Assembly (NCBI GenBank): GCA_028687545.1
Contig: JAQTZZ010000002.1
Span: 139,635-203,634, forward strand
DNA length: 64,000 nucleotides
Reading direction: 5' to 3'
Source: Candidatus Wallbacteria bacterium
Lineage (GTDB): Bacteria; Muiribacteriota; JAQTZZ01
The notes below the pieces were generated by a model. It searched no databases and had not been told where the DNA came from. It worked only from the letters and a program-made list of their open reading frames with translations. Position 1 is the stretch's first letter. Every line of letters begins with the position of its first letter. A program made the translations under genes and the position numbers. Positions 1,990 to 42,028 of this stretch are shown piece after piece.

Positions 1990-2000
1990 ATCTCGCTGAG

Positions 2001-4640: not shown

Positions 4641-4652
4641 ACACGCGATGAG

Positions 4653-7600
4653 GTGTGCGTGAATTTAAGAGAAATCGAGATTCTTCAGTTTGCAGTCACT
4701 GACCGCTGCAATCTCAAATGCATCATGTGCCATCAAGGCACGCTGGAGTATCAGAAACAGATAAAGCGTGATTTCAGCCTGGACCTTTTCCGGGGAGTGC
4801 TGGACGACATGGCCGGAAACGGCTTCAGTGCAAGGGCGCTTTATTTTTTCTGGAACGGGGAAACGTTTCTGCATCCGGATTTTCTATCAATGCTTCACTA
4901 TGCATACAACCTGAATGCAAAAAACAGGATCTTTGACGTGGCTTATTTGAACACCAATGCAGGGTTGCTGGATCCTGAAAAATCCGATCAGCTGATTTCC
5001 ATCCTGGACAGGAGCGGCTCGAATGTTCTCAGCATCCTGAATTTTTCGATAGACGCAGTGAATGAACAGACTTACAAAGCCATCCGCAGGGGCGGGAATT
5101 TCAGAAAAACAGTGGAAAACATCAAGTATCTGGTCAGGAAAAGATCTGATTCAGGGTTGTCCAGCCTCTATTTTATTTTCCAGATCATAGTGCAGCCCGG
5201 AAATTTCAATGAAGTGGAGGATTTTTCTGCTTACTGGAGCGGATTCCTGTCGGAACTGAAATTACCGCATGAAATTGTAGCGCTTGAGGATCTGTCGTAT
5301 CTGGAAATAAGTGAGAAAAAGAAGCATTTGATTAACATCAGGCCTCTTCTGACCAAGGGAATTCCTGACTTCGACCGCAAAGCAGCTGGAATCTGGAATT
5401 ACTGGAAAAATGTTCTGATCCGAAGAGAGCGGGAAAATCCCCAGCTTCCGGAAATACCGGATGATCGATGTTACATCGTTCCGATTCCAGAACTCAATCT
5501 GGCTGCTTTAGAAAATCAGGCACCGCAAAGGCGATTCCTAGGCGGAACATACCTGCGGAAAAATCCCTGCCCCTACCTATTTAAGACCGCGTTGATCAAA
5601 CCTGACGGAGAGGTTACTGTCTGCTGCCGAGACCCGTTCCACCTGGGGAATCTGAACCAGAACAGATTTTCTGAAATCTGGCTCTCCCCTGATTCTGATA
5701 AAAAGAGAAATCTGAGTTTGAACTTGGACTTTGCCGCACTCTCTCCTGGTTGTGTCCATTGCAGTGATTGTGATGAATCATTCTGGAAAATGCTTTATCT
5801 TCCTGAAATCAGTAATTTTTATCAAAACAATCCTCCTGAGCAAGTTGTTTCCTTTGTAAGAACTCTTCCGGAAAAAGAGCAAAAACTGATCCTGGAGAAA
5901 GCTCTCTTTTTTTCCGAATCCGGTGATATTGCCTTGGCAGATCGCCTGTTTTCAATGCTCGATGATTCGGCGATCAATTTGATCGCCCGTGCCTCTTTTG
6001 AAGTCAAAACAGGGAAAACCGGGGAAGCGGTAAGAGATTATCTGAGACTGCTTGAATATCCTGAGCTGAAAAACCGGGGAGAGATTTTCCTCTCAGTGGC
6101 GATTCTGAAAATCAGGGAACATAAAAATGGTGAAGGTCTGCACTGGTTGGACCAGGCTGAAAATTTGATTCCTGATCACCCAAAATTGATTGAACAAAAA
6201 GCCTATCTTTTAATGTCCGCTGAACCGCAAAAAGCGCTGGAATATTTTCTCAGACTGGCCGCTCTGGCTGATAAATCCGAAAAGATCAGGATTTATCTGA
6301 ACTGTGCTCTACTCTGCTTTAAAACTCAAAATTCCGAGAAAGCCCTGGAATATTTGTGTCAAGCAGAACCGTTTCTTCCGGAAAACATTAGTGCTCCCGA
6401 AGATCTGGCCATCCGGGCATATCTGCTGGAAAAATTTGGAAAAACAGATGATGCGGTCAGGGATTATCTGAAACTGCTTGATTATCCGGATTTGAAAAAC
6501 CGGGGAGAAATAATGCTTTCGCTGGGACTCCTAAAACTCGGGATCCAAAAAAATGATGAGGGGCTGTATTGGCTGAATCAGGCTGAACAATTGATTCCTG
6601 ATCACCCCAAACTGATCGAACAAAAAGCCTATCTTTTGATGTCCGCTGAACCGCAAAAAGCGCTGGAATATTTTCTCAGACTGGCCGCTCTGGCTGATAA
6701 ATCCGAAAAGGGACGGATCTATCTAGCTTCCGCGTTTCTATCACAAAAAATGCGAAACCCTGAGAAAACCCTGGAATATTTGAGACAGGCTGAGCCATTT
6801 CTTCCGGATGAGATTGTTACTGGGGAAGTGCTGACCCAGAAAGCACATTTACTGGAAAATCTGGGAAAAACTGAAGAAGCATTCCAGGCATATCTGAAAT
6901 TAATCGAAAAAAATGGCCCGGCGACAGGAGAACATCAGCTCAAAGCCGGATATCTTGCACTGGAATTGAAAGATGAAAAGCAGGCATTGACCTGCTTTGA
7001 GAGCGCTTCCAGATATTGCACCAATGAATTGAGAATTAACGAAGTTCTGGCTTCCTTATACCGTAAAGAAGGAGATTATTCCAAATCCTGCTGCCTATTT
7101 CTCGGTTTGCATAAAAAATTCGGAAGCGAGCATTATCTGCTGGAATTTTTACGGACCCTCTCCCTGCATCCGGAAGTAGTGCCTTTATTTAGTGATGATT
7201 TGACTGATCTGGATAAAAGTGCCACTGAATCTGAAGCGCTTTTTCTTCTGTTCTCACTCAACCGCTCCCTGAATCGGACTGAAACCTGCTTCAAAATCAC
7301 AGAACGGCTGTTATCTGAAAAGGCCGCCAGTCCATATGAAAAAGAGTGCGCTTTGTTTTCAGCAGAGTATTTTTCAGCAGCCGGCAATTACGCTGCTGCC
7401 CTTTTCAGGCTGAAAAAGGGGAGAAAGCAGATTGATCAGCAGACTTTTAATTATCAGACAGGTGAAATCCTTAATAAAGCAGGCAAAAAGAGACTGGCAC
7501 TTAAATATTTCAGGAAGCTTGGTGAAGCCGGATTGGAACGCACCCTGGCTCTGCTTGATTCCATGGACAGATCTCTGGAAGTGCTGGAACTTTGCCGAAA

Positions 7601-7982
7601 TCTGGAGCTGATTCAAAAGAACTGGGGTAAAGTGAAATTGTATCTCTTGTCTTTATGGAAAACAGGAAAATATCAGGAAGGCATGCAAGTGTTCAATAAT
7701 GGCAATTTTGACAAAAATGAGGAATATTACAGGCTGCAGGGTGGATTTGCGCTTAAAACAGGGGAATCTGAAACGGCCCTGGCAAGTTACGCGATGCTTG
7801 AAAATACGGCAAAAAGCGAGAAAGACAGGTTGGAGTTCCTGGAAACCGAGGGATACATTCTCAGAAAATTGGGCAGGAAGAGAGAGGCCTTGAAAAAATA
7901 TTACCGGATTTTGAAGTCGTCTGGCCGTAAAATTCATGCTCTGAAAGCCATGCTCTGCACGTTTCTTCCAGGGAAAAACTGA
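4653..7982 (+). CDS. radical SAM/SPASM domain protein fused to C-terminal TPR repeats (1109 aa); longest paralog
   Basis: Same architecture as 2001..4640 (CNLKCIMCHQG; WNGETFL; VCCRDPFHLGNL; SPGCVHCSDCDE). The 5' ~110 nt are about 90% identical to the paralog. Extra length comes from inserted TPR modules, including a near-identical internal duplication. Confidence 0.8.
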   Translation: MCVNLREIEILQFAVTDRCNLKCIMCHQGTLEYQKQIKRDFSLDLFRGVLDDMAGNGFSARALYFFWNGETFLHPDFLSMLHYAYNLNAKNRIFDVAYLNTNAGLLDPEKSDQLISILDRSGSNVLSILNFSIDAVNEQTYKAIRRGGNFRKTVENIKYLVRKRSDSGLSSLYFIFQIIVQPGNFNEVEDFSAYWSGFLSELKLPHEIVALEDLSYLEISEKKKHLINIRPLLTKGIPDFDRKAAGIWNYWKNVLIRRERENPQLPEIPDDRCYIVPIPELNLAALENQAPQRRFLGGTYLRKNPCPYLFKTALIKPDGEVTVCCRDPFHLGNLNQNRFSEIWLSPDSDKKRNLSLNLDFAALSPGCVHCSDCDESFWKMLYLPEISNFYQNNPPEQVVSFVRTLPEKEQKLILEKALFFSESGDIALADRLFSMLDDSAINLIARASFEVKTGKTGEAVRDYLRLLEYPELKNRGEIFLSVAILKIREHKNGEGLHWLDQAENLIPDHPKLIEQKAYLLMSAEPQKALEYFLRLAALADKSEKIRIYLNCALLCFKTQNSEKALEYLCQAEPFLPENISAPEDLAIRAYLLEKFGKTDDAVRDYLKLLDYPDLKNRGEIMLSLGLLKLGIQKNDEGLYWLNQAEQLIPDHPKLIEQKAYLLMSAEPQKALEYFLRLAALADKSEKGRIYLASAFLSQKMRNPEKTLEYLRQAEPFLPDEIVTGEVLTQKAHLLENLGKTEEAFQAYLKLIEKNGPATGEHQLKAGYLALELKDEKQALTCFESASRYCTNELRINEVLASLYRKEGDYSKSCCLFLGLHKKFGSEHYLLEFLRTLSLHPEVVPLFSDDLTDLDKSATESEALFLLFSLNRSLNRTETCFKITERLLSEKAASPYEKECALFSAEYFSAAGNYAAALFRLKKGRKQIDQQTFNYQTGEILNKAGKKRLALKYFRKLGEAGLERTLALLDSMDRSLEVLELCRNLELIQKNWGKVKLYLLSLWKTGKYQEGMQVFNNGNFDKNEEYYRLQGGFALKTGESETALASYAMLENTAKSEKDRLEFLETEGYILRKLGRKREALKKYYRILKSSGRKIHALKAMLCTFLPGKN

Positions 7983-8108: not shown

Positions 8109-8171
8109 AGGGTAACTCCGGCCACCCCACAAGGTTTCAGAAGAATAAATTGGAAAATTTACCCGCACGAA

Positions 8172-9332
8172 TCACTTTCTCAATATCTCAGCTTCCAGCG
8201 CCTGATATTTCTTCATGTTTTCATAAACAGCCAGATCAAAGCCATCCCAGTCGGGCATCACAACTGACTCCAGCGCTGAAATAAGTTCAGCCGCGTCACT
8301 GATTTTCACTCCGATCCTGAGCCGCTCCAGCAGTTCAGACTCGATTGCGAAATTCCGCATGAACGGCCCGTAAATCACCCGGCAGCCGGCCTGGGCCGGT
8401 TCCAGGATATTGTGGCCTCCCAGATTGAGGAAACTTCCGCCCACAAAGGCAAATTGAGCCCTGCCGTAAAATTCAGCCAGCACTCCCATCCTGTCGATCA
8501 GCAGAAAGTCGCCATACCAGTTTTCCCCTGAGCTTAAAAGTTTGCCTGTAAAACCAAGATTCGACGCGTCTTTCAGCACCTGCCTGCAGCGTTCCACATT
8601 GCGCGGTGCCAGAGCTACCCTGAAGCCCTGCTTCCTGATTTCCCGCAAGGCAGCGAACAGGACTTTTTCATCCTCAAAATGCGTGCTGCCTGCAATCAGC
8701 AGTTTTTCCTTATGCGCCACTTTTACACAGCCTGGCAGGAGCTTGAAATTCACAGGCAGCCGGCAGATGATGCCCGCTTCGTTCAGAAATCTCTGATTAA
8801 GTTCGTCTTTGGGATAGACGTTCCCATTTTTCAGACAGATTCTGTAGAGCGAAAAAAAGCGCAAAAGCTGACGATTTGCGTTAGAGAGGCGCACATTCAG
8901 CCAGAAAAGCGGGATATAGCGTTTCTTTGCAGCCAGCATCAGATTCGGCCACAGGTCCACTTCAGAGACTACTATTTTTCTTGGTTGGACTGTATCAAGC
9001 ATTTTCCCGACTGCAAAGGAGAAGTCCAATGGCGCGAGCATCACTCTGCGCGTCAGGTTTTCCCAGTTTTTCTTCAAGTGAGCAACTAGCTCTGTGTCAG
9101 GAGACAGCACCAGGCAGGAGCTGGCTCGCTCGGCCATCCCTGCAATGTTTCTGAATTCCCCGAAAGAGACAGTAAAAAAAACAACTGGTTTATCAAGTTC
9201 AGGGTAATCCACAAAACCCAGCCAGGACTTGAAATTCGCGAAGCTGATCAATTCCTTGTTGTATAAATAAACCAGAATCAGCGGAGAACAAAGCAGCAGG
9301 AAAAAAAGATAGGCAAGATCAATCAAGGCCAT
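8172..9332 (-). CDS. waaA: 3-deoxy-D-manno-octulosonic acid (Kdo) transferase
   Basis: Translation carries Kdo-transferase motifs (GSTHFEDE, FVGGSFLNLGGHNILEPAQAG) and an N-terminal membrane anchor. Start set at the ATG giving MALIDLAYLFF (cat at 9330-9332), a 14-bp overlap with the upstream acyltransferase gene. Confidence 0.8.
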   Translation of the reverse strand: MALIDLAYLFFLLLCSPLILVYLYNKELISFANFKSWLGFVDYPELDKPVVFFTVSFGEFRNIAGMAERASSCLVLSPDTELVAHLKKNWENLTRRVMLAPLDFSFAVGKMLDTVQPRKIVVSEVDLWPNLMLAAKKRYIPLFWLNVRLSNANRQLLRFFSLYRICLKNGNVYPKDELNQRFLNEAGIICRLPVNFKLLPGCVKVAHKEKLLIAGSTHFEDEKVLFAALREIRKQGFRVALAPRNVERCRQVLKDASNLGFTGKLLSSGENWYGDFLLIDRMGVLAEFYGRAQFAFVGGSFLNLGGHNILEPAQAGCRVIYGPFMRNFAIESELLERLRIGVKISDAAELISALESVVMPDWDGFDLAVYENMKKYQALEAEILRK

Positions 9333-10140
9333 AGGTACGCTTCTTAAATCTGTCGTAAAACAACTGCCACTGTTCAGGCACTTTCCTGACAACCTGGTCG
9401 TAGAATTCAAGGTATCTGCGACTTTGATCCTCAACCGATTCATCCGGATTGGCTGAAGTCAGATTCTCAAGCACAATCCTGTGAAATCCATTTTTTTTCC
9501 GCTTCAGGTAAATTCCCACTACAGGAAGCCCGTATCGCTTTGAGAGCCTGGCAGGCCCTGCCGGGAATGACACATCGCATCCGCACCAGGAGAGCCTGAT
9601 CCCGTTCGGTCCTCCGTCATGGTCTGAGATCAGGCCCAGCACTTCCTTTTTCCTGATCAGCCTGAGAACCCCCAGAATGTTGTCATGGTCGATCAATCTG
9701 ATTCCGACCTTATCCCTGTAACTGTTCAATATTTTCTCCTGCAGTTCGCTTCTGGCGCGCAAGTAGATCGAAGTGAGCGGCAGCCCGTATGCCACCAGAG
9801 CACCTCCCAGCAGTTCCCAGTTTCCCAGATGCATTGAGAGAAAAATCATGGCTTTCCCGCTGCTGCGCGCTTTTTTCACCAGTTCCTGATCGAGCTCGTC
9901 AAAACGCACGATCCGCCTGATCTGATCCGGAAACAGGCTGAAATAAAAAAGTTCAAAGAGCAGCTGCCCCTGCTGTCTGAAAAATTCCCTGACAGTCTTC
10001 TGAAGCTTAAATTCACTGATGTCAGGGAAAAGAGCCCGCAGATTCCGCTCAGGCACCTCGGCCAGGGAGGGGGCGCACCGATAAACAAACAGCCCGATAA
10101 GCCGGGCTGTTGAACTTCCAATCCTGTATAAAAGCATCAC
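9319..10140 (-). CDS. lpxL: lipid A late acyltransferase, LpxL/HtrB (lauroyl/myristoyl acyltransferase) family
   Basis: 273-aa product with the family's size and layout (MHLGNWELLGG; DHDGGPNGIRL). Overlaps the giant gene's stop by 4 bp and waaA's start by 14 bp. The exact paralog (LpxL, LpxM or LpxP) is not resolvable. Confidence 0.7.
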   Translation of the reverse strand: MMLLYRIGSSTARLIGLFVYRCAPSLAEVPERNLRALFPDISEFKLQKTVREFFRQQGQLLFELFYFSLFPDQIRRIVRFDELDQELVKKARSSGKAMIFLSMHLGNWELLGGALVAYGLPLTSIYLRARSELQEKILNSYRDKVGIRLIDHDNILGVLRLIRKKEVLGLISDHDGGPNGIRLSWCGCDVSFPAGPARLSKRYGLPVVGIYLKRKKNGFHRIVLENLTSANPDESVEDQSRRYLEFYDQVVRKVPEQWQLFYDRFKKRTYGLD

Positions 10141-13100
10141 TCTTTTTCAGCTTCCAGGTCTTTCCAGAAGGTGGTATTGACACGCTTGGGCTTGAGCATT
10201 TCCTGCGCTTCCCTGGTGATCTCGCTGTCTACAGGAGCCAGGTTGACGACTACGATGAACTCTGCCACAGCCTCGTCGATCATGCCTTTATCGCGGTAAG
10301 CTTTGCCAAGGTAGAAATGCGCATTGACATTGTTCTCGTCCAGAGCGATGATCCGTTTGTATTCCAGCACAGCGTCGTCCAGTCTGCCCTTCTTCAGATA
10401 GAGGGAAGACAGGCTGAAATGGGCATCCAGGTTGCGGCTGTCCCGGCGCAGGCCCTCTTCCAGCATCTTGGCGGCTTCCTCGAATCTGGAAAGCTCTTTA
10501 TAAACTTCTGCCAGCATGAAATAACCCTGGGCTCCCTCAGGCATCAGGCCGATCACCTTCTGCAGTTCTTCCAGCGCGTAATCGTACAGTTCGCGGTCCA
10601 GATAGATCTGGGCCAGCATGTTATGCGCCTCAGTTTCCTGGGGATTTTCGCGGATAATGTCCTTGTAGGCGGTGATGGCACGGTCGTAAAGCTTCTTGTC
10701 CTTGTAGATCCTGGCGAGCGACAGTCTGGCCTTGAGACTCACAGGCTCCACTTCGATCGCTTTCTTGTAATATGAGATCGCTTCCTCCATCATACCCTTG
10801 CCGACGTAGAGGTCTCCAAGATAGATGTATGGTTCGGCCTTGCCAGGTTCGATCTTGCGGCATTTTTCCAGCACCACGATCGCATTGTCGTTCATCTTGA
10901 GGCGCAGGAAAAGCTTGCCCATTCCCATGTGAATCCTGTAATCCTGCGGCCGCTTTTCCGAGAGCTTCTGATAGATCTGCCTGGCTTTCTCGTCCTCGTT
11001 CAGCCCCTCGTAACATTCCGCCTCTTTCCTCAGCAGTTCCTCGTCGTCCTCCCGCTCCAAGAGCAGCTTCTGGAAATAGCGCAGGGCTTCCTGGAATCTG
11101 TTCTTCTTGAAATAGATGTTGCCGATGATTTCCAGTGATTCCTGGCTGTCCGGGAAATTGCCGAGCACTTCATGCAGGAGAGGCAGGGCGTCATCCAGTT
11201 TGCCGATTCTCACGTAGCAGCGGGCGAGGCGGATCTTCAATTCGTGATCCTGAGAGACTTCCATCGCCTTCTTGATCTCAGCCACAGTTTCCGAAATCAT
11301 GTCCCTGCTGTAGTAGATGTCTGCCAGGAGTTTGTAAGCTTCCACCGAATTCCTGGGGTAATATTCCTTGATCTTGGAAAGCACAGTCACGGATTTCTCG
11401 AAATCACGCAGATGCCAGTATGTTTTACCCATCCAGAGCAGCAGATCAGGGTCTTTTTCCTTCAGCTCCCTGGCTTTTTTAAAATAGTCCAAAGCTCCTT
11501 CTGGATTTTTTTTAGTTGCTTCGATCGTGCCCAGGCGGTAGAAGGCTTCGAAGGAATTGGGGTCGAGATAGAGGAGTTTCTGGTAGAGTTCTTCCGCTTC
11601 CTTGAAGCGTTTCATCGAGAGATAAACCTCTCCCATTTCCCGCAGGAATTCCTGATTATTCATGCGCAGGTGGACAGCCCGCTCGAGACAAGGCAGGGCG
11701 GCCTTGAGGTCACCCCTGCTGCGGTGGATTCTGCCCATTTCGAAATAGGCTTCCACAAAATTGGGGCTGACTTCGATCGCTTTCTGGAAAAGGCGGATGC
11801 TGTCCTCAAGAAGCTTCCGCTCCAGATAAATCATGCCCAGATAATAATATGCTTCGGCCCGGTTGGGGTCATTCAGAACTACCTGTTCCAGATGCTTGAG
11901 CGCCAGGTTGAAATCGTGTTCCTGGTAATAGATTGTCCCCAGCTCGAAGAAGGCGTTGATATCTTCCCCGTTCTTTTCAAGATATTTCTCCAGGTTTTCC
12001 TTGGCTTCCGAAGTTTTACCCATGCCCTTTTCAAGCAGTGCCAGCCTGTAGCGGGTGTCCTTGTAACCTCCGGTCATCTCGATCACTTTCAACAAATTCT
12101 GATACGCCTTATCCGGCTTGCCGAGCTTCTGATATACATAACCTGAGAGGTAATACGCTTCAGGCTCGCCGATCGACAGATTGCGGGCTTTTTCATACTG
12201 CGCGATGGCCTCGTTCAGCATGTGGGCTTTCTCATAAGCAGTTCCCAGAGTGATCCGCAGGTCGTAAGAAGCCTCGTCGAGATAAGTGGCTTTCTCCAGG
12301 TAGGAAATGGCTTCGTCGATCCTGTCGCGCTCGATCAGGATCTTCCCGATGTCGTGCATGGCAGGCTTGAATCTCGGATTGTACTGGATAGCCCGCTCCA
12401 TGTTCCTGGTGGCCGCGTCCAGCATGTTCTGCTGCCAGTAAATGCGGGCCAGCCAGTAATAAGCTTCGGCCGTTTCCGGCCAGCGCTCGATCAGACGCTT
12501 GAAGAGCGACTGGGCGGAATCGTATTTTTTCTTTTCGAAATAGCATTTCGCCAGCAGCAGGTTGGTTTCCCTGTCGTCAGGAGTCAGGCGTGACTGCTCG
12601 TCCAGAAATGGAATGGCATCATCGATCTGGTCCTCTTTCAATCTGAGCTTTGCCAGATACAGATTCACCTGTTCAAAAGCATTGTTTAAAGAGTAAACCT
12701 TGCGGAAGAGGTCGGCGGCTTTATTCAGATCGCCAAGTTTGAAGGAGATCAGCCCGAGTTCGTAATCCACAGTCGGAGTGCTTTCCTTCTCCATCTGCCG
12801 CAATTCCTGAAGCTCGATCTCAGCTTCGCTGAAACGCTCCTTTTCCCGGTAGAGTCTGGCAAGATAGATCCTGACTCTGGGTTCAGCGGGAAGCAGTTCT
12901 TTCAGTTTCTGGAATTTGAACAGCGCGTCCTCGAAATCACCGTTGTAGTAGTGGGCTTCCCCGAGATTCATAAGAATTTCAGGGGTTTCCTTCCTCTCCA
13001 CGACAGCGCGATATTCATGGACAGCTTCTGCATATCGTCCCATCTTGAAATAGACCTGTGCCAGCCTGCTCCTTACCCCGACGTCGTCGGTATTGAAATT

Positions 13101-16100
13101 CAAAGCTCTGCGCAAGGATTCCTTGGCTTTCTCATTTTCGTTCATAGCGATGAAAATTTCCGCTTCGATGGACAGAAGTTCGGCGTCCTTATCACGGGCC
13201 GGAACAGGTTCCAGGGTTTTAAGGGCCTGATGGGTGTTTTCACTAAGCAGATAGGCTCTGGCAAGCAGCTTGCGGCCTTCACAGTCCTGCGGGCAGATCT
13301 TCATGAAACGTTCCAGTTCCAGGATGGAATTGGCGTAATCGCACTTGGCGAAATAGCTCTGCGCAAGCAGCAGGCCGTAACGCGCTTCCCCGGTATTTAC
13401 CATCAGCTTGCGGAAAAGTTCCACGGATGTTTCCAGGTCTCCCCTTGCTCTGGCGATCAGTCCTCCCAGTTCCTCGATCCGCTGCTCTCCGGCTCCCCCT
13501 GCCTTTCCGAGCCATTCGGAGGCCTGCTCGAAATTTCCCTGCTTGTAATTCAGCAGCGAGAGGTAATATTCGGAGCCTGCATCAGGAGATTGAACCAGCA
13601 CAGCTTTGAAATCAACAAGGGCCTGATCGTATTCTCCGTTCTCGAGATGAATTTTCCCGATCTCCAGATTATTCTTGCACTTTTCAAAACAAAGGAGCGC
13701 TTTTTCCCGTTCGTTGCCCGCAAGATACAGCCTGGCAAGTTTTTCGAACATCTCAGGGGGCTTGTCGCCGGGAAAATTTTCCAGCGCTTTGACCGCACCG
13801 GTAAGATTGTTCTGCTCTTCCATGATTTGTGAAAGCATCATCCGCAAGTCCATCTGCACCGGGGATAAGAAGATGGCACGTTCCAGCAGGAATGCCGCCT
13901 TGTCCAGCTTGCCGTCCTCCCGGTAAATCATGGCCAGAAGCTGATAAGGGAGAAAATTGTCAGGTTTGAGCGGGATCACTTTTTCCAGGATCTTCTCGGC
14001 TTCCCGCTTGAGCTTCCTGTCGAAATACGCGGCTGCCAGTTCGGAGAGGAGGGTAAGATTTTCCGGATCCTTATGCCTGGCCTTTTCCAGGATGGAAATG
14101 GCATCACCGGCCCTTTTGTCTTCCCTGAGCATCCGGCCGAGTTCGATGTATGAGTCCAGATAGTTAGGCAGATTCTCGATCAGTTCCTCCAGGATCTTCC
14201 TGGCTTCTTCCCGTTTGCCGGCCAGCTGATAAATCCGGGCCAGATTGTAACGCGCGCTCTCATGATACGGGTTGAGCATCAGGAGCTTTTTCACGGCTTC
14301 TTCTGCCAGGTGATAATGTCCCTGCTCGAAATAGATCCGGCTCATGAACAGCCAGGGATCCTCGCTGGACGGATGATGGCTCAGATATTCCTCGAAATCC
14401 TTCTGCGCCAGCACATGTTTTTTCAGATTGAAATTGATCTTGCCTGAGAGCAGGATATATTCAGGGTTGGGGTCAGGGGTTTCCCTCAAAAATTCCACTT
14501 TTTCCGCCGCTTTTTCGTAATTCCCGGTTTCAAGGTAGCAGACTGTCAGCAGATAACCGACATCTTCTGAAACCCGGTCCAGCTTCTCGGCTTTCTGCAG
14601 GAAGGAAACCGCATCCCCGTGACGCTTCTGATCGATCAGAATCCTGGCTGCATCGAGCAGTACCGCGAGTTTCTCCGGAGCAAGCTCCACCGCCTTATCC
14701 AGGGACTTTCTGGCCAGATCGTGTTTTTCCTGACAGGCCAGCACTCCGCCGAGCATCAGGTAAGCCTGGCTTTCGCGCTTGTCTTTACAGATTTCCCGTA
14801 GAATCTCCTCAGCCTTGGCATGGCTCCCCTTTTTCCAGTATGCATCGGCCAGTACCATGCCTGCGGAATAATTCCCGGGCCAGAGCGGCCGCAGGAGCTC
14901 AATCACCTGGCCGAATTCCTTCCTGGTCAGATAGATTCTCCCGAGAAATTCACGGACTTCAGCGTTTTCGGGCTCGAATTTCAAATATTGCCTGAAGTTC
15001 GCTTCGGCCTGGACGAAATCCTGTTTGTGATAATAAATCCTGCCTGCCTGCAGGAAAGCCTGCTTGAAGCTGGGATTCAGTTCCATCACTTTTTCCATGG
15101 CCAGCAGGGCATCCTGCTCTTTGCCAAGTTTCTGATAGACCTCGCCAATTTCAAAATAGGCCTGATATGAGGAAAAGTCGATCTCGACAGCCCTGTGGAA
15201 CTCGTTCAGAGCCTCTTCAAACAGACCCTGTTCCTTGAGTATTTTTCCCAGGTAAAAGTAAGCGTCAAAAAACTTCGGCTGATGAAGCAGGGCTTTCTGC
15301 AGAAGTTCCTTGGCGTCATTGAGCATTTTCTGTTCCTTGTAGACCATGGCCAGCCCCAGCAGCGCCTGGAAGTTTTCGGGTTCATTGTCCAGAATGGACT
15401 TGAAGAGCAGGTTGGCTTCAGTCACTTCGCCGTTGGCAAGATATGCCTGCCCCAGTTCCAGGTAAGCGCCGAAATCGCTCGGAGTTTGAGAAATTGCCGT
15501 TTTGAACGCTACTATCGCATGAGAAAGCTTGCCGCGCAGCCTGAGTATCTTTCCCAGCAGGTAATGATAACCCGGGACTTTTCGCTCTTCAGGGATTTCC
15601 CTGATGATGCGCTCAGCATCGACGACCCGGCCCAGCTCGAAATATGCCCGGACCAGTTTGAGCTTCAGCTCAGGGCTTTTCAGACCGGAGGGCAGGCCTT
15701 CCAGGAAATCGACCGCCAGCAGGTAGTTGTTCATCTCAATCAGGCAGTCGGCTTTCCGGGAATACACCTCACGGTCGGATGGAGAAATCTTCAGCGCACG
15801 GTCGTAAAGTTTCAAAGCCTCGTCGAACAGTTTCCGCTTCCTGTACGCGCTGCACATGCACAGGTAAGCATCAACGCTTTCAGGCTTGATCTCCAGAAGT
15901 TTCTTCAAAATGGAAATCCCGTCGTCAAAATTGCTGTTCCTGAAAAAGGCTTCAGCCAGCATCAGATGGAATTTCTCATTTTCCCTCTGTATGCTCAGTG
16001 CTTTCCCGAGATATTCGGTGGCCAGTTCCAGCCTGCCTGCGTTCAGGTTCGCTTCACCAAGACAGGCATAAATCTCTGCGTCCCGGTCCTTTTCCTCGAT

Positions 16101-18107
16101 CCTTTCCAGGTATTCGCAGGCGTCCTGCCATTTGGAAAGTTTGAGGCTGATGCTGCCAAGATTCCTCAAGGCTTCCAGGCATTCCGGAGCCTTAGCCAGC
16201 ACGTCCCTGAAACAGGCGTAGCCTCCTTCCAGGTCGTGTTCCTCAAGCAGCAGCTTCCCTTTGAGAAGCAGCGGATTATAATCGTCAGGCTTGAGGGTCA
16301 GGCATTTTTCGATGAAACGTCCGGCCTTGCGGTAATCTTTCTGACTGCCGGAAAGCATTGCCAGAAAATAATAGGCATCCGCATTTTCTTCGATTTCCAG
16401 GATTTTCTTAAGGTACTGTTCCGCCTGCTGAGGCTTTCCGTTCTGAAAGCAGACCTCAGCCAGTTCAGAGAGCAGATTCAGATGCCTGCTCCCGGTATCG
16501 AGCGAGACGGCCTTTTCCAGGTAATAGATCGTTTCCTCGATCAAACCCCTCTCACGGGAAATCTTTCCGAGGTAATAATAAATCTCATTCTGGTAGGGAT
16601 TGAGTTCAGCCACTTTCTTGAATTCCAGAAAGGCTTTTTCCAGGTCTTTCTGCTCAAAATAAGCCTTGGCGAGATAGAAATGCAGCCTTTCATTGAAGGG
16701 TTCATATTCAAGGGCTTTCAGCCACTCGCGGGTTGCTTCGCCGGTCTTTCCCTGTTCGTAGAAAGAGAGCCCCAGCTCGAAATAACTGCGGAAACTGTCC
16801 AGCCCCATGTTTTCCAGAATCGAGGAGGCTTTCTCGCGCACGAGCTGGGATTTGTCCTTGAGTGCTCCGATGAGAGCTTCGGTGGCTTCGCTGCTGCCTA
16901 TCCCGGCCAGGGCTTCCACAACCGCCACCCTTACTTCTTCCTGCGGATCAGACAGATATTTCATCAATTCAGGTACTGCTTCCTTATACCCCATGAATTT
17001 GATCGTGTTGATAGTTTCCACCCTGATGAAAGGTGAAGGTGATGACATTGTATTCAGGAGCAGCCGATAGATTTCTTCGCAGGGAAAATTCCGGAGAGCC
17101 TGGAGTGCGACTTTTTTCAGCTCCAGGTCATCGCTTTCCAGGGCAGAAATGAAGATGCCCTTGCTCTTCTCGTCCCCGATTTTGATCAGGGCGCTCAGGA
17201 TTTCCTTCTTCACTTCCCGATGGGTATCGTTGAATGCGTTGATCAGTGCTTCCTGTGTGGTTTCCAGGCCGAGCCGTTCCAATGCCCGGGCTGCATTCCT
17301 CCTGACTTCCCACTGGTGGTCTGCAAGGGCTTTGACCAGGTTGGGGGCAGACTTTTCGTCTGACAGTTCACCCATCGCCCAGACGCAGTTTTTCCGCACA
17401 TCAGGGTTGGAGTCCTCCATAGCTCGGATCAGAGCGTCGACAGCTGAGGAATTGCCAACTCTACCCAAGGCACGGGCTGCCAGAGAACGCACTTTACCGT
17501 TCTGGTCCTTGAGGGATTCCAGGATCGCCGGAATCGCCCGCTCGTCTCCGAGCTGAAAGAGCATTTCCAGAGCCTTGCTCCGAAGCTGCGGGGCCGGATC
17601 ATTCAAGGCGGCGATCAATGCATCGATTGAGCGCTTGTCATGGAAGACTTCCAGAGCTTCCAGCACCTGGCCTCTGACTTCCCGGTTCTCATCCGACATG
17701 ATCTGCAGCAATGGTTCCAGAGCCCGTTCGTCGCCAATGTTCTTCAGGGCATCGATTGCAGTTTTGCGTACATCGCTGTTCTGGTCTCTGAGCATCGGCA
17801 GCATGCATTCGACGCTGCCCTTGTTCCTGAATTCTCCCAGAGCCCTCGTGGCTATGATCCGGATTTCTTTGTTATTCTCCCGGAGAAGCTGCTCCAGAAC
17901 CGGTATGATTCTGGTGTCTTTCAGTTCCAGAAAAATCTCCACCACCCTGACTACAACCTGCTGGTTGAGGGTTGGGAGCAGCCTTTTAATGTCTTCGAAA
18001 TAGTCCAGCAGCCTGTTCTTGCGAATTAATTCCAAGGCTTCGAGTTTATCCAGCAGGGACGGACTTTCTAAACCCTTGATAATCTTTTCTTGTTCAGCAC
18101 TTTTCAT
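10137..18107 (-). CDS. giant (2656 aa) HEAT-repeat plus TPR-repeat protein
   Basis: Uninterrupted ORF. N-terminal ~450 aa are PBS-lyase-type HEAT repeats (DVRKTAIDALKNIGDERALEPL; NREVRGQVLEALE...). The rest is dozens of 34-aa TPR-like units (A.YYLG..Y...G....A...F.KA.E.DP). GGGGGA Shine-Dalgarno before the ATG at 18107. Confidence 0.85.
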   Translation of the reverse strand: MKSAEQEKIIKGLESPSLLDKLEALELIRKNRLLDYFEDIKRLLPTLNQQVVVRVVEIFLELKDTRIIPVLEQLLRENNKEIRIIATRALGEFRNKGSVECMLPMLRDQNSDVRKTAIDALKNIGDERALEPLLQIMSDENREVRGQVLEALEVFHDKRSIDALIAALNDPAPQLRSKALEMLFQLGDERAIPAILESLKDQNGKVRSLAARALGRVGNSSAVDALIRAMEDSNPDVRKNCVWAMGELSDEKSAPNLVKALADHQWEVRRNAARALERLGLETTQEALINAFNDTHREVKKEILSALIKIGDEKSKGIFISALESDDLELKKVALQALRNFPCEEIYRLLLNTMSSPSPFIRVETINTIKFMGYKEAVPELMKYLSDPQEEVRVAVVEALAGIGSSEATEALIGALKDKSQLVREKASSILENMGLDSFRSYFELGLSFYEQGKTGEATREWLKALEYEPFNERLHFYLAKAYFEQKDLEKAFLEFKKVAELNPYQNEIYYYLGKISRERGLIEETIYYLEKAVSLDTGSRHLNLLSELAEVCFQNGKPQQAEQYLKKILEIEENADAYYFLAMLSGSQKDYRKAGRFIEKCLTLKPDDYNPLLLKGKLLLEEHDLEGGYACFRDVLAKAPECLEALRNLGSISLKLSKWQDACEYLERIEEKDRDAEIYACLGEANLNAGRLELATEYLGKALSIQRENEKFHLMLAEAFFRNSNFDDGISILKKLLEIKPESVDAYLCMCSAYRKRKLFDEALKLYDRALKISPSDREVYSRKADCLIEMNNYLLAVDFLEGLPSGLKSPELKLKLVRAYFELGRVVDAERIIREIPEERKVPGYHYLLGKILRLRGKLSHAIVAFKTAISQTPSDFGAYLELGQAYLANGEVTEANLLFKSILDNEPENFQALLGLAMVYKEQKMLNDAKELLQKALLHQPKFFDAYFYLGKILKEQGLFEEALNEFHRAVEIDFSSYQAYFEIGEVYQKLGKEQDALLAMEKVMELNPSFKQAFLQAGRIYYHKQDFVQAEANFRQYLKFEPENAEVREFLGRIYLTRKEFGQVIELLRPLWPGNYSAGMVLADAYWKKGSHAKAEEILREICKDKRESQAYLMLGGVLACQEKHDLARKSLDKAVELAPEKLAVLLDAARILIDQKRHGDAVSFLQKAEKLDRVSEDVGYLLTVCYLETGNYEKAAEKVEFLRETPDPNPEYILLSGKINFNLKKHVLAQKDFEEYLSHHPSSEDPWLFMSRIYFEQGHYHLAEEAVKKLLMLNPYHESARYNLARIYQLAGKREEARKILEELIENLPNYLDSYIELGRMLREDKRAGDAISILEKARHKDPENLTLLSELAAAYFDRKLKREAEKILEKVIPLKPDNFLPYQLLAMIYREDGKLDKAAFLLERAIFLSPVQMDLRMMLSQIMEEQNNLTGAVKALENFPGDKPPEMFEKLARLYLAGNEREKALLCFEKCKNNLEIGKIHLENGEYDQALVDFKAVLVQSPDAGSEYYLSLLNYKQGNFEQASEWLGKAGGAGEQRIEELGGLIARARGDLETSVELFRKLMVNTGEARYGLLLAQSYFAKCDYANSILELERFMKICPQDCEGRKLLARAYLLSENTHQALKTLEPVPARDKDAELLSIEAEIFIAMNENEKAKESLRRALNFNTDDVGVRSRLAQVYFKMGRYAEAVHEYRAVVERKETPEILMNLGEAHYYNGDFEDALFKFQKLKELLPAEPRVRIYLARLYREKERFSEAEIELQELRQMEKESTPTVDYELGLISFKLGDLNKAADLFRKVYSLNNAFEQVNLYLAKLRLKEDQIDDAIPFLDEQSRLTPDDRETNLLLAKCYFEKKKYDSAQSLFKRLIERWPETAEAYYWLARIYWQQNMLDAATRNMERAIQYNPRFKPAMHDIGKILIERDRIDEAISYLEKATYLDEASYDLRITLGTAYEKAHMLNEAIAQYEKARNLSIGEPEAYYLSGYVYQKLGKPDKAYQNLLKVIEMTGGYKDTRYRLALLEKGMGKTSEAKENLEKYLEKNGEDINAFFELGTIYYQEHDFNLALKHLEQVVLNDPNRAEAYYYLGMIYLERKLLEDSIRLFQKAIEVSPNFVEAYFEMGRIHRSRGDLKAALPCLERAVHLRMNNQEFLREMGEVYLSMKRFKEAEELYQKLLYLDPNSFEAFYRLGTIEATKKNPEGALDYFKKARELKEKDPDLLLWMGKTYWHLRDFEKSVTVLSKIKEYYPRNSVEAYKLLADIYYSRDMISETVAEIKKAMEVSQDHELKIRLARCYVRIGKLDDALPLLHEVLGNFPDSQESLEIIGNIYFKKNRFQEALRYFQKLLLEREDDEELLRKEAECYEGLNEDEKARQIYQKLSEKRPQDYRIHMGMGKLFLRLKMNDNAIVVLEKCRKIEPGKAEPYIYLGDLYVGKGMMEEAISYYKKAIEVEPVSLKARLSLARIYKDKKLYDRAITAYKDIIRENPQETEAHNMLAQIYLDRELYDYALEELQKVIGLMPEGAQGYFMLAEVYKELSRFEEAAKMLEEGLRRDSRNLDAHFSLSSLYLKKGRLDDAVLEYKRIIALDENNVNAHFYLGKAYRDKGMIDEAVAEFIVVVNLAPVDSEITREAQEMLKPKRVNTTFWKDLEAEKE

Positions 18108-18162: not shown

Positions 18163-18192
18163 ATGATAATTAATCAGGCTTTATTTTGTCAA
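18163..18192 (-). promoter_or_regulatory. putative sigma70-type promoter of the giant HEAT/TPR gene
   Basis: On the - strand: TTGACA (complement of 18187-18192), 18-nt spacer, TATCAT (complement of 18163-18168), about 55 nt upstream of the ATG at 18107. Confidence 0.3.
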
Positions 18193-18220: not shown

Positions 18221-18240
18221 AGACGCGCCATGGCGCGTCT
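18221..18240. promoter_or_regulatory. perfect 20-bp palindrome AGACGCGCCATGGCGCGTCT
   Basis: Exactly self-complementary. Sits ~30 bp upstream of the putative -35 of the giant gene and ~40 bp downstream of the small ORF at 18280..18399. Could be an operator or a hairpin. Confidence 0.35.
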
Positions 18241-18279: not shown

Positions 18280-18399
18280 TCAGATGTGTTTGAATACCGG
18301 TTTCAGGGCATCAATGGCCTTGAAAAAAAGTTCCACCCCGACGAAAGATACGATCAGCGGGAGAAAAATGCAGAGCATGACCAGTAAAAGCAGTTCCAT
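18280..18399 (-). CDS. possible 39-aa small membrane protein (MELLLLVMLCIFLPLIVSFVGVELFFKAIDALKPVFKHI)
   Basis: ATG at 18397-18399 preceded by AAGGGGATAAG (Shine-Dalgarno-like); a single predicted transmembrane helix. An alternative upstream start at 18462 would give 60 aa. Confidence 0.25.
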   Translation of the reverse strand: MELLLLVMLCIFLPLIVSFVGVELFFKAIDALKPVFKHI

Positions 18400-18613: not shown

Positions 18614-19960
18614 TCAAAATCCTGCTTCTACCGCTTCTTCCAGAGAACAGACTTCAATTATTTCCACACCTTCAAAGGATTCGGTGATTTTTTCCTTGCC
18701 TTTGGGGAGGATCATTTTTTGATAGCCGAGTTTCGCTCCTTCCCTGATCCGTTCATTCATGAAGGGTACTATCCTGATCTCAGAAGTCAGGCTCAATTCT
18801 CCCAGACTGAACAGGCAACGCGGGGGTTTGTTCCTGAAAGACGAATAAACTGCAAGCGCTACTGCGAGATCTGAAGCAGGATCAAAAACTTTAAGCCCGC
18901 CCACGACATTGACGTATACGTCGTATTCCGCTGTTTTTATTCCGAGATACTTTTCGATCACCGCGATAATGGAAAAAATCCTGGTGACTTCGATACCCTG
19001 TGCAAGCCTCCGTCCATTACCGAATGAACTGTAATTAGTAAGACTCTCGATCTCGCAAAGCATCGGTCTGGTGCCTTCCATTGATGTCGTCACCTGTATT
19101 CCGGCCCTGGAAGCAGACCTGTCAGACAGGAACAGTTCAGCAGGGTTTAAGACTTCTGAAAGTCCCTGCCCGGTCATCTGGAAAATCCCGATTTCATTGG
19201 TGGAGCCGAAACGGTTTTTTACAGTGCGCAGGATCCGGAAATTGAACTTCCGTTCGCCTTCGAAATAGATCACTGTATCCACCATGTGCTCCAGAATCTT
19301 CGGGCCTGCAATGGTGCCCTCCTTGGTGACATGTCCCACGATGATCAGGCTGGTTCCGGATTCCTTGGCATGCGCCACCAGCTTCTGAGTGCATTCCCTG
19401 ATTTGAGAGACAGTCCCTGGAGCGGATTCGCAGGAAGCGGTATTCATGGTCTGGATGGAATCAATCACCACTACGGCCGGCGAGTTGTTTTTAATGGCAT
19501 CCAGTATGAATTCCACCGTGGTTTCAGGAAAGAGCAGCAGGCTGCCGGCCCCGGAAATTCCCAGGCGCTCAGCCCTCATTTTCAGCTGCTGCGGCGATTC
19601 TTCGCCCAGGACGTACATCACCTTGGCTTTAGCAGAAAGCAATGCAGACATCTGCAGAAGCAGAGTGGACTTGCCGATGCCCGGCTCACCCCCAACCAGT
19701 ATCACTGATGCAGGTACTATCCCTCCGCCAAGGACGCGGTCGAATTCTCCGCAGCCGGTAGAAATCCGCTGATGGCTGATGCTTTCGATTTTTTCAAGTG
19801 ACAGCACTGCAGCGGATTGATGCCCGGCAGTTTTGTGATTTTCGGTCTTCTCTTCGGTAAGAGAATTCCACTTGCCGCAGTCCGGACATTTGCCCAGCCA
19901 CTTTGGGCTCTGAAAACCGCAGCTCTGGCAGGTGTAGATGATTTTATTCACTTGATTCAT
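18614..19960 (-). CDS. radA: DNA repair protein RadA/Sms
   Basis: N-terminal zinc ribbon (CQSCGFQSPKWLGKCPDCGKWNS), RecA-like ATPase with Walker A GGEPGIGKSTLLLQ, and a C-terminal Lon-protease-like domain; 448 aa. Confidence 0.9.
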   Translation of the reverse strand: MNQVNKIIYTCQSCGFQSPKWLGKCPDCGKWNSLTEEKTENHKTAGHQSAAVLSLEKIESISHQRISTGCGEFDRVLGGGIVPASVILVGGEPGIGKSTLLLQMSALLSAKAKVMYVLGEESPQQLKMRAERLGISGAGSLLLFPETTVEFILDAIKNNSPAVVVIDSIQTMNTASCESAPGTVSQIRECTQKLVAHAKESGTSLIIVGHVTKEGTIAGPKILEHMVDTVIYFEGERKFNFRILRTVKNRFGSTNEIGIFQMTGQGLSEVLNPAELFLSDRSASRAGIQVTTSMEGTRPMLCEIESLTNYSSFGNGRRLAQGIEVTRIFSIIAVIEKYLGIKTAEYDVYVNVVGGLKVFDPASDLAVALAVYSSFRNKPPRCLFSLGELSLTSEIRIVPFMNERIREGAKLGYQKMILPKGKEKITESFEGVEIIEVCSLEEAVEAGF

Positions 19961-20358
19961 CCGAAAAAATACTGCTTCAGTGCAGGCAGAGTATAGGTAC
20001 CGCGCATCATTTCAAAATACAGGATGAGTAATACCTGAAAAACGAAATAGCAGGAATACAATCTGAAATCCGTCCTTCCGAAATAGCGCTCTGCAAGATA
20101 AACGAACCCGTTTGAATAAAACATGAAGAGTATCATCCCGCTGGAAATCAGGATCAGAATGGTCTGCAGGGAAAAATCCAGCACAAACAGGGATCCGATG
20201 AAAATCGCGAGTCCCAGCCCGAAAAAGAGATTGTTGTAATATGAGACAAGTTCGGTCCAGCGTTCTGGTTCAGACTTCCCGAGCGAGAGGAAAAGCGCAA
20301 CCCCGCAGACCATCACAGTGGAAAGATAGACAGAGTTCAGTATCAGTTCTTCGTGCAT
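19957..20358 (-). CDS. hypothetical small integral membrane protein (133 aa, ~4 TM helices)
   Basis: ORF overlaps the radA start by 4 bp (translational coupling); hydrophobic segments throughout; no recognisable motif. Confidence 0.45.
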   Translation of the reverse strand: MHEELILNSVYLSTVMVCGVALFLSLGKSEPERWTELVSYYNNLFFGLGLAIFIGSLFVLDFSLQTILILISSGMILFMFYSNGFVYLAERYFGRTDFRLYSCYFVFQVLLILYFEMMRGTYTLPALKQYFFG

Positions 20359-20469
20359 TTTTTCTCCTGATCAGCGAAAATCAACTTATCCTTCATTATT
20401 TATTCAGCATTAACAAATTGTCAACTTTTCGTGGGAAAGATCACTTTGCATTGCACCATAAATCTCTGT

Positions 20470-20994
20470 TCAGATCCAGTCAAGCAGATTCTCAAGCGAT
20501 TCCACTACGCAGCAGTCCAGTCCAGCCACCTTGCCCTGCTCACTCTCCCCGTAACCTGTCAGCACCAGAAAGCTCTTCTTCAACCCGGCGTTGAGTCCGC
20601 AAAGGACGTCAGAGTGCTTGTCGCCCACGAGGAATGATGATTCAAGGTCCAGTACGTATCTGTCCCGGGCCTCAAAGATCATACCAGGTTCAGGCTTCCG
20701 GCAGCTGCAGGGTCCGCTGTAATCCGGATGATGCGGGCAGATCAGAAAATCGTCGATCAGTCCGCCTGATTTCCGATTCAGTTCTTCGTTTACGGCCTGG
20801 GCAGCGGCCAGGTTGTACATCCCTTTGGCGATCCCGGCCTGGTTTGTCACAACGAGCAGGAGAAATCCCATTTCTTTCAGTTTTTTCAGGACTTCCGGAA
20901 CACCGGGTAACAATGCAACTGCAGCCGGATCGTGCAGGTAGTTCCGTTCAACTATCAAGGTCCCGTCACGGTCAAAAAAGAAAGCTTTTTTCAT
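20470..20994 (-). CDS. gmhB: D-glycero-beta-D-manno-heptose 1,7-bisphosphate 7-phosphatase (HAD family)
   Basis: FFFDRDGTL (HAD motif I), VVTNQAGIAKG, and the GmhB zinc-binding signature CPHHP...C.CRKPEPGM; 174 aa. Confidence 0.8.
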   Translation of the reverse strand: MKKAFFFDRDGTLIVERNYLHDPAAVALLPGVPEVLKKLKEMGFLLLVVTNQAGIAKGMYNLAAAQAVNEELNRKSGGLIDDFLICPHHPDYSGPCSCRKPEPGMIFEARDRYVLDLESSFLVGDKHSDVLCGLNAGLKKSFLVLTGYGESEQGKVAGLDCCVVESLENLLDWI

Positions 20995-21005
20995 CTCAAA
21001 AGCCC

Positions 21006-23136: not shown

Positions 23137-23282
23137 CAGTCCTCCCAGACAAGTGAGAATGATATATCTCCTGCATTCACCCGCAGGTTATTTGTCGCTC
23201 AATCCAGATTTTATCATAAATCCTGCAATTTCATCAATTCAGAGAGTGGATAAAATCTTGTTTCTGAGATACAATTCGTGTC

Positions 23283-24320: not shown

Positions 24321-24344
24321 GGAACGGTCGCGACTGTTCCCTAC
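24317..24344. terminator. 28-bp near-perfect palindrome spanning the stop codons of two convergent glycosyltransferase genes
   Basis: GTAGGGAACGGTCGCGACTGTTCCCTAC is self-complementary except for one G·T pair; it contains TAG at 24318-24320 (+ gene) and the complement of CTA at 24341-24343 (- gene). No flanking T-tract. Confidence 0.4.
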
Positions 24345-26274: not shown

Positions 26275-26406
26275 GCTGTCTCCAAATATTTTTCAGCTAT
26301 GTATTGTCTCAATATATGGGCTCCCAAAAGCAAAGTCAACAGCAGCCTGCCGATATTTATGAGGCTGTTGCTTGATTCAAGCCTGAGACACGCATATAAT
26401 TTTCTC

Positions 26407-27213: not shown

Positions 27214-27405
27214 AGCAGTATGAAAAAAACATCCCGCTGCGAGCGGAAAACTCTTACAGTGAAAATCCAGCCAAATCTATTTTCTCCAGGACCCAGATTC
27301 TCGATTTCAGGATACAGGCGGAAAGCCTGAATCTGGAAAAGAAAGGTGATCTGGCAGCCTTTATCCTAAGAAAGGACTGATCTGAAAAAAGCTTATATCC
27401 TTGTC

Positions 27406-28407: not shown

Positions 28408-28424
28408 CTCCCAGTGAGTGACCA

Positions 28425-29267: not shown

Positions 29268-29282
29268 GGGCTCTCCTCCGTC

Positions 29283-40939: not shown

Positions 40940-40976
40940 ATATCAGTCTGACAAAATTTTTCATTGAGGAGGTTAA

Positions 40977-42017: not shown

Positions 42018-42028
42018 AAGGAGTGCCT

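Follow-up and report, generated by a model that had tools for sequence, protein, structure and literature searches.

In a 64,000-nucleotide stretch of DNA from a Candidatus Wallbacteria bacterium (positions 139,635 to 203,634 of the forward strand of contig JAQTZZ010000002.1, assembly GCA_028687545.1; hereafter the window), we found that an 8-kb gene for a giant repeat protein, with HEAT repeats at its N-terminus followed by tetratricopeptide repeats (TPRs), directly precedes lpxL and waaA, genes of the acyltransferase and Kdo (3-deoxy-D-manno-octulosonic acid) transferase families of lipid A synthesis, and that this gene order is kept in Muiribacteriota. The scaffolding of lipopolysaccharide (LPS) enzymes by TPR proteins is already known; what is new is a very large, anchorless HEAT-TPR protein linked to lpxL-waaA in Wallbacteria and Muiribacteriota. 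From gene context and repeat-protein architecture, we tentatively propose, with slightly less than even confidence, that the giant may act in the cytoplasm as a scaffold or holdase in the late, membrane-peripheral steps of lipid A synthesis. The elements of the locus, in order of transcription, are as follows.

18163 to 18192, minus strand: promoter-like site (consensus match)
10137 to 18107, minus strand: giant HEAT/TPR gene (list of open reading frames, Pfam, composition)
16818 to 17990, minus strand: HEAT domain of the giant, residues ~40-430, ~12 repeats of 31 amino acids, PBS-lyase/alphaRep type (Pfam, hidden Markov models, AlphaFold, Foldseek)
10254 to 16778, minus strand: TPR array of the giant, residues 444-2618, ~64-65 contiguous 34-amino-acid repeats (Pfam, hidden Markov models, AlphaFold, Foldseek)
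10188 to 10277, minus strand: C-terminal tail motif of the giant, residues 2611-2640 (alignment of four full-length members)
9319 to 10137, minus strand: lpxL, PF03279 acyltransferase, isoelectric point (pI) 9.6 (Pfam, alignment, composition)
10088 to 10111, minus strand: GC-rich hairpin within lpxL (folding scan)
8172 to 9332, minus strand: waaA-like Kdo transferase gene (Pfam, match to structure 2XCI)
8109 to 8128, minus strand: terminator-like hairpin (consensus match)

The giant gene is one intact, ATG-started open reading frame (ORF) of 2656 amino acids, and a frame of 8 kb in DNA of ~51% GC cannot have originated by chance. An earlier reading of the letters alone (the sequence-only reading) had described a single ORF with HEAT repeats followed by TPRs, and this description was confirmed by the ORF list, by Pfam and by repeat hidden Markov models (HMMs) that were built from the giant protein itself. 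In Pfam, the N-terminus matches HEAT_2, HEAT and HEAT_PBS, and the remainder matches TPR families (E-values of 2.5e-70 for HEAT_2, 1.9e-32 for HEAT_PBS, 8.4e-207 for TPR_19 and 1.5e-182 for TPR_2). With our own HMMs, we detected 8-11 HEAT units of 31 residues within residues ~40-430, where we estimate ~12, and 53 TPRs in strict 34-residue register between residues 444 and 2618. The gaps between detected TPRs measure ~46 or 78 residues, leaving room for one or two missed repeats each, so that the 53 detected units and the gaps fitting 12 more give ~64-65 contiguous TPRs; a short tail C-terminal of the array ends the protein. No tandem or long direct DNA repeats were found within the gene, which argues that the TPR array is old, and the identical protein is present on an independent Logan contig; together, these two observations rule out an artefact of assembly or of repeats. 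A collection of 15 billion proteins lacks the exact giant sequence, though it contains the LpxL-like protein encoded beside it in the same NCBI metagenome-assembled genome (MAG); the NCBI record of the locus may use another start or leave the gene uncalled.

The protein (307 kDa, pI 5.5, net charge -56) is acidic throughout. Prediction of signal and membrane segments, which the sequence-only reading had suggested as a check, revealed no signal peptide and no membrane helix: the N-terminal residues (MKSAEQEKIIKG) are polar, and no 19-residue stretch exceeds a Kyte-Doolittle mean of 1.47, which is reached in the C-terminal part of the TPR array. There is no CxxC motif anywhere in the giant of the window, and its relatives have none or one isolated CxxC. 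Because it lacks a signal peptide and a membrane helix, the giant should be a soluble, cytoplasmic protein. This bears on the role in outer-membrane or LPS assembly that had been suggested for it: the LPS part fits the conserved linkage to lpxL-waaA, but a role at the outer membrane itself is unlikely, since a protein without such segments would stay in the cytoplasm, where LpxL and WaaA act.

AlphaFold (AF2) models, made from the single sequence, are helix-turn-helix throughout, with the HEAT part passing into the TPR part unbroken (mean predicted local distance difference test, pLDDT, 87.8 for residues 1-600; 79.9, with 59 helices, for residues 1657-2656). The TPR array is thus predicted to be a continuous all-alpha solenoid. 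When the HEAT model was searched with Foldseek, the top matches were alphaRep proteins (TMt 0.86-0.89, 36-39% identity) and the A subunit of PP2A (PR65, TM ~0.55). AlphaRep/PBS-lyase HEAT repeats and PR65 are generic binding modules, and the match to the N-terminal 430 residues implies no common function. The C-terminal 1000 residues matched best to IFT139/TTC21B, Ski3, Ctr9 and the TPR domain of OGT, which, like the giant, are TPR solenoids, with partner proteins held on them. The likeness to these eukaryotic scaffolds, at 12-20% identity, is at the level of the fold only, as any long TPR array would show; none of them has more than ~40 repeats, and they come from another domain of life and have partners of an unrelated kind. 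A eukaryotic case that involves a lipid-modifying enzyme is PI4KIIIalpha, which is brought to the membrane by the TPR protein TTC7 together with the alpha-solenoid protein EFR3.

The junctions with the two downstream genes are tight. At the giant/lpxL junction (...GAAAAAGAGTGATGCTT...), the TGA stop of the giant overlaps a GTG start at 10140 by 4 bp or an ATG start at 10137 by 1 nt (TGATG), so the 4-bp overlap of the sequence-only reading holds with the GTG and not with the ATG. The product would have 273 or 272 residues, respectively, and 272 is the length of a 100%-identical, NCBI-derived protein (P0051, from a Candidatus Wallbacteria MAG); both geometries are compatible with translational coupling. 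The 14-bp overlap claimed between lpxL and waaA was confirmed with the waaA ATG at 9332. The family calls for both genes also stood up. The lpxL product matches PF03279 (4.7e-33) and keeps H103-LGNW-E108, an H-x4-E motif invariant in our alignment of LpxL-like proteins (A1), which we take to correspond to the catalytic H-x4-D/E motif of LpxL/LpxM acyltransferases. The WaaA-like protein (386 residues, hydrophobic N-terminus) matches PF04413 (5.3e-18) and Aquifex WaaA (2XCI, 4.5e-29).

We scanned for promoters and terminators by consensus only. A promoter-like site (TTGACA-18-TATCAT, 11/12 match) lies ~55 nt upstream of the giant ATG, which is preceded at 4 nt by the ribosome-binding site GGGGGA, and a terminator-like hairpin with a T-rich tail lies 44 nt past the waaA stop; since the following gene converges from the plus strand, the giant-lpxL-waaA unit likely ends at this hairpin. 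Between the giant and lpxL, we found no convincing promoter or terminator that would separate the two. Promoter-like matches inside the giant are all 9/12, which makes an internal promoter unconvincing but conceivable. The 9-10 bp GC-rich hairpin in codons ~10-17 of lpxL was rejected as a terminator: it lies within the coding sequence, its U tail is poor (UGUUUAU), shuffled sequences fold as well as the region does (z = -0.27) and the hairpin is absent in relatives, although it could be a weak attenuator. From the junction geometry, we infer that the three genes are probably translationally coupled and co-transcribed. Just upstream of the promoter-like site, on the same strand, we also observed an ORF for a hydrophobic 39-residue peptide (MELLLLVMLCIFLPLIVSFVGVELFFKAIDALKPVFKHI, 18280 to 18399, ribosome-binding site AAGGGG), for which the independent Logan contig (L001) has a gene call as well, followed by a perfect 20-nt palindrome (AGACGCGCCATGGCGCGTCT) at 18221 to 18240.

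Relatives of the locus were sought by whole-protein search, by a metagenome scan with the C-terminal tail, which yielded the two loci L087 and L091 described below, and by an exhaustive search of representatives. The whole-protein word-index search was swamped by HEAT giants and gave one true relative, P0003 (2656 residues), which aligns with the giant of the window from residue 9 onward; P0029, a 3198-residue TPR protein in a type VI secretion system (T6SS) cluster, was a false lead from the same search. The exhaustive HMMER search with residues 1-1200 gave 337,739 matches at E ≤ 0.001, nearly all generic, among which P0183 (2650 residues, collinear from residue 6) was the sole family member. 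A profile search with the C-terminal 350 residues returned just generic small TPR proteins and did not recover the known family members, and P0185, of similar length to the giant, has an unrelated architecture.

We found that the order giant, lpxL-like, waaA, which had been noted in the window, is kept in all Muiribacteriota loci (L002/L003, L087, L091 and L101) as far as the contigs reach, so that the linkage is present in relatives. The two loci of P0003 (L002 and L003) carry a gene for a 272-residue PF03279 protein 2 bp past the giant stop, and both contigs stop there. In Candidatus Muirbacterium halophilum (L087, GC 26%), where the giant has 2657 residues and the source name 'tetratricopeptide repeat protein', and in a Muiribacteriota bacterium (L091, GC 31%), where it is cut by the contig end, the giant is followed by an LpxL-like gene, waaA, a GT1/GT4 glycosyltransferase gene and an ORF the size of lpxK, which is LpxK by Pfam in the former. 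The contig of P0183 (L101) reads HEAT_2, RDD, giant, LpxL-like (272 residues), WaaA, LpxK, PdxA. Overall, an LpxL-like gene lies next to the giant in five of the five members with downstream sequence (window, L002/L003, L087, L091, L101), and waaA follows in all four with further sequence. Counted from the stop of the giant, lpxL begins at -4 or -1 nt in the window, at +1 in L002, at +4 in L091 and at +12 in L087 and L101. The outer flanks differ between the Wallbacteria and Muiribacteriota loci, which leaves lpxL and waaA as the sole neighbors common to both lineages.

The giants themselves share a HEAT part of ~430 residues, ~64 TPRs, a conserved tail, a length of 2650-2657 residues and an LpxL-like gene directly downstream. 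The four full-length members measure 2656, 2656, 2657 and 2650 residues despite indels of whole repeats in the alignments, and the TPR arrays of family members, as delimited with HMMs, have their first residue at 444, 448 or 449 and their last at 2618, 2628 or 2629. Across the four full-length giants, 289 of 2656 positions (11%) are invariant. The most conserved stretch of 30 residues is the tail (DEAvaEFIvVVNlAPvDSeitREAQeMLkP, residues 2611-2640), with 15 invariant positions, so that the most conserved segment of the giant is the one that abuts lpxL. The giant of the window is 22-24% identical to those of Muiribacteriota, which are 44-55% identical among themselves. The case for orthology across the two phyla rests on the architecture, the collinear N-terminus and HEAT-TPR junction, the bounds of the TPR array, the length, the shared tail and the synteny.

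The linkage appears specific to this family. As a control, we used 80 LpxL loci among the matches listed in a genome scan with LpxL patterns, all from other phyla (Poribacteria, Riflebacteria, Eisenbacteria, Negativicutes and others) and none from Wallbacteria. In these 80 listed loci, no ORF of at least 900 residues abuts lpxL and, by our own HMMs, no TPR- or HEAT-rich ORF lies beside it; the minor HMM matches outside the family loci were one TPR unit (L034) and two HEAT units (L010), each of them kilobases away from lpxL. Where a large ORF does precede lpxL in Poribacteria and other phyla, it encodes a restriction enzyme, a peptidase or an Ig-domain protein, and these ORFs were set aside. 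In Riflebacteria, the order is msbA, DUF374, lpxB, lpxL, waaA, with lpxB in the place of the giant, and another locus outside the family reads lpxL, waaA, lpxR. Since loci such as these have the pair without the giant, lpxL-waaA is an old and widespread pair to which the giant is a lineage-specific addition.

In addition, the giant-linked LpxL-like proteins (ACYLTRANSFERASE) are all 272-277 residues long and basic (pI 9.6-9.9), complementary in charge to the giants (pI 5.0-5.5). The stretch ahead of the catalytic His is 94-102 residues long in the two linked proteins that could be measured cleanly (window and L087), whereas in 81 other listed loci its median is 124 and its minimum 108; no other protein among the 85 compared has an N-terminus as short as those of the linked ones. 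The LpxL-like protein of the window has ~30 residues before its ERNL motif, with a highest Kyte-Doolittle mean of 1.06 and no anchor helix, and its closest free-standing homologs (P0052-54) have ~35 extra hydrophobic residues at the N-terminus.

We propose that these observations could be joined as follows. The giant, lpxL and waaA would be transcribed together from the promoter of the giant, and lpxL would be translated by ribosomes that have just come off the giant, delivering the new LpxL-like protein beside the C-terminus of the giant. There, the new acyltransferase might dock, perhaps on the conserved tail. WaaA, and possibly further LPS enzymes, would be bound by the remaining TPR/HEAT surface and in this way stay soluble and close to one another on the inner side of the cytoplasmic membrane. 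In favor of such a scaffold are the conserved and specific linkage, the fit of compartments, the conserved tail, the short N-termini of the linked LpxL-like proteins and the complementary charges; by analogy, the structural neighbors, all scaffolds of multi-protein complexes, and the precedent of LapB, discussed below, also speak for it.

Several observations weigh against the proposal. Because the Muiribacteriota giants are 44-55% identical to one another, the family effectively comprises two independent lineages, and the giant-lpxL arrangement could stem from a common ancestor or a single transfer. Just 2-4 of 26 100-residue segments of the giant have their best match at the collinear position in relatives, indicating that identity in the TPR part is largely generic repeat similarity; a test of repeat-by-repeat orthology across the two phyla gave a negative result, and we dropped the ~23% 'collinear' identity as proof of orthology. 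The argument from a lost anchor is modest, since many free-standing LpxL homologs also lack a strong membrane helix (a predicted helix with a Kyte-Doolittle mean of at least 1.6 is found in just 22 of the 81 listed). The LpxL-like protein falls below every NCBIfam LpxL/LpxM equivalog or subfamily cut-off (best 91.9 vs 248 bits) and the WaaA-like protein below the NCBIfam equivalog cut-offs (148 vs 363), so that their exact reactions are assigned from family and context. Finally, the scaffolding of two or three enzymes offers no explanation of why 64 TPRs should be needed.

The first alternative is that the neighborhood was inherited without functional meaning and that the giant has an unrelated task, acting in, say, division, pili or secretion as a general scaffold or cytoskeleton-like protein. 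HEAT/TPR giants number in the thousands and occur in many contexts, such as the T6SS cluster of P0029, just two deep lineages carry the present arrangement, and lpxL-waaA is itself an old pair that is widespread without the giant. Mere inheritance, however, would not readily account for a junction held at -4 to +12 nt despite ~22% identity, a GC content ranging from 26% to 51% and the replacement of the outer genes, nor for a tail that is best conserved where it abuts lpxL and a shortened N-terminus shared by the linked LpxL-like proteins. On balance, we consider this explanation possible but rather unlikely.

The conservation is striking, with giants of nearly identical length in the two phyla. 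One speculative account of this length, which we regard as doubtful, is that the giant is a rod of fixed length and ~300 kDa, lying under the inner membrane as a track or ruler for an assembly line of LpxK, WaaA and the anchorless LpxL; the rod would stand in for the membrane anchor of LpxL and determine how LPS synthesis is spaced or located. By the published geometry of the TPR superhelix, 64 TPRs would span roughly 55-60 nm. If the giant is such a rod, the repeat number would be under selection, given that, at 22% identity between the two phyla, lengths stay at 2650-2657 residues and the bounds of the TPR array shift by no more than ~10 residues. The late steps of lipid A synthesis are usually pictured as the work of independent membrane-anchored enzymes, and we know of no track or ruler in this pathway; to our knowledge, the one organizer of these steps is LapB of proteobacteria.

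The statement of the sequence-only reading that a giant scaffold and lipid A enzymes are not a known partnership was overstated, as E. coli LapB (YciM), a cytoplasmic TPR protein, is described as a scaffold for LpxA, LpxC, LpxD and FabZ (PMC13477621) and for WaaC and other LPS enzymes. WaaC and LPS glycosyltransferases co-purify with LapB, whose absence leads LpxM, WaaC and WaaO to aggregate (PMC8745692); loss of LapB also results in under-acylated lipid A (PMC8745692, PMC13477621). LapB and the giant are alike in being cytoplasm-facing TPR proteins tied to lipid A enzymes, in the case of the giant by gene context. In architecture, the two differ: LapB has an N-terminal membrane helix, nine TPRs and a C-terminal rubredoxin in ~390 residues, whereas the giant has ~64 TPRs, seven times as many, plus ~12 HEAT repeats, and neither anchor nor zinc domain. 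Moreover, LapB acts with FtsH on LpxC and, unlike the giant gene, its gene does not adjoin lpxL or waaA. Against the NCBIfam LapB equivalog, the giant scores 286 bits, spread over 11 stretches, with a cut-off of 363. The resemblance would be one of function, by analogy, rather than of descent or architecture. Scores above cut-off were obtained for PrsT, a PEP-CTERM TPR lipoprotein (TIGR02917, 759.6 vs 312), and for MamA (NF040959, 619.8 vs 200), because 9-19 partial matches of the 64-TPR array to these short TPR models are summed; together with PilW, we rejected these NCBIfam assignments as artefacts. The giant has no lipoprotein signal, and no PEP-CTERM/XrtA, exosortase or magnetosome genes occur among the window genes scanned with Pfam.

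In view of LapB, the giant might also be a regulatory adaptor of the same type, either inhibiting lipid A enzymes or delivering them to FtsH or another protease, and thereby balancing LPS against phospholipid. LapB is a TPR protein with such a role (PMC13477621), the giant gives sub-threshold matches to LapB models, and an RDD membrane protein with a zinc ribbon, encoded just upstream of the giant in Muiribacteriota, could supply a LapB-like anchor and zinc module in trans. The giant itself, however, lacks a membrane anchor, a rubredoxin and CxxC pairs, its LapB score reflects generic TPR similarity, the LapB target LpxC is not in the neighborhood and the window has no RDD homolog, all of which make an adaptor quite improbable. 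With regard to the upstream genes in Muiribacteriota, all three loci with upstream sequence have a HEAT_2 protein of 120-125 residues and then the RDD protein of 160-170 residues before the giant (L002 8936 to 9965, L087 1345 to 2272, L101 8975 to 9921), and the two RDD proteins that were read (L002 and L087) start with a CPKCG...CxxC zinc ribbon. An anchor and zinc ribbon supplied in trans would echo the layout of LapB. The RDD homolog was not found in the window, and the small HEAT protein gave one weak tblastn match to the window, within the HEAT region of the giant itself.

Equally hard to credit is that the acyltransferase does not act on lipid A and that the giant serves another pathway, for a glycolipid or for protein acylation, in which the TPR/HEAT array would choose the substrate: the low NCBIfam LpxL/LpxM scores given above, a PDB match to the mycobacterial phosphatidylinositol mannoside acyltransferase PatA (2e-6) about equal to that to LpxM (2.7e-7), and a source name for the identical protein of merely 'lysophospholipid acyltransferase family protein' would allow it, but the lpxL-like gene overlaps waaA, LpxK follows in Muiribacteriota, the Riflebacteria homolog sits in msbA-lpxB-lpxL-waaA and the window runs on into an LPS core/O-antigen cluster. 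Acylation of Kdo2-lipid IVA by the LpxL-like protein would be consistent with this context of WaaA, LpxK and LPS core genes.

If the giant is indeed a scaffold for lipid A enzymes, a second, unrelated and far larger organizer would be present in the lpxL-waaA operon of two uncultured phyla, which would suggest that LPS scaffolding is a recurrent solution. Some of the giant repeat proteins of candidate phyla can be placed in a definable pathway context, and if the conservation of length reflects real selection, one may ask what a bacterium measures with a rod of 64 TPRs. Our literature searches returned no published description of this gene or operon.

Upstream of the giant on the same strand, we found radA and then the cluster of LPS core/O-antigen sugar genes (20470 to 31902), which encodes a HAD phosphatase, GT1, GT2 and GT9 (heptosyltransferase) transferases, epimerases, a dTDP-4-dehydrorhamnose 3,5-epimerase, a sugar C-methyltransferase (PF08484/PF08421) and an FkbM methyltransferase. 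This set of genes suggests that the LPS of this organism may contain methylated deoxy-sugars. Between the cluster and radA lies an ORF of 133 residues (19957 to 20358, minus strand) with several hydrophobic segments and no Pfam match, whose end overlaps the radA start by 4 bp and which has an 11/12 promoter-like site upstream (20395 to 20424). Among other TPR giants, three proteins of 3255-3352 residues (P0023, P0025 and P0032, the last from the cyanobacterium Microcoleus) carry PF01075 (GT9, heptosyltransferase family) in precomputed Pfam annotation and would be TPR giants fused to an LPS-type glycosyltransferase fold.

On the other side of the operon, genes on the plus strand (142 to 7982) converge on its waaA end and encode a TPR protein of 615 residues and two paralogous radical-SAM/SPASM proteins (879 and 1109 residues) with C-terminal TPR regions; they could form a peptide-modification cluster. 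Farther away, genes for a beta-keto acid cleavage enzyme (BKACE), a zinc-type dehydrogenase and a lysine-2,3-aminomutase-like radical SAM enzyme stand side by side on the plus strand (40121 to 43273), in what looks like a lysine fermentation module.

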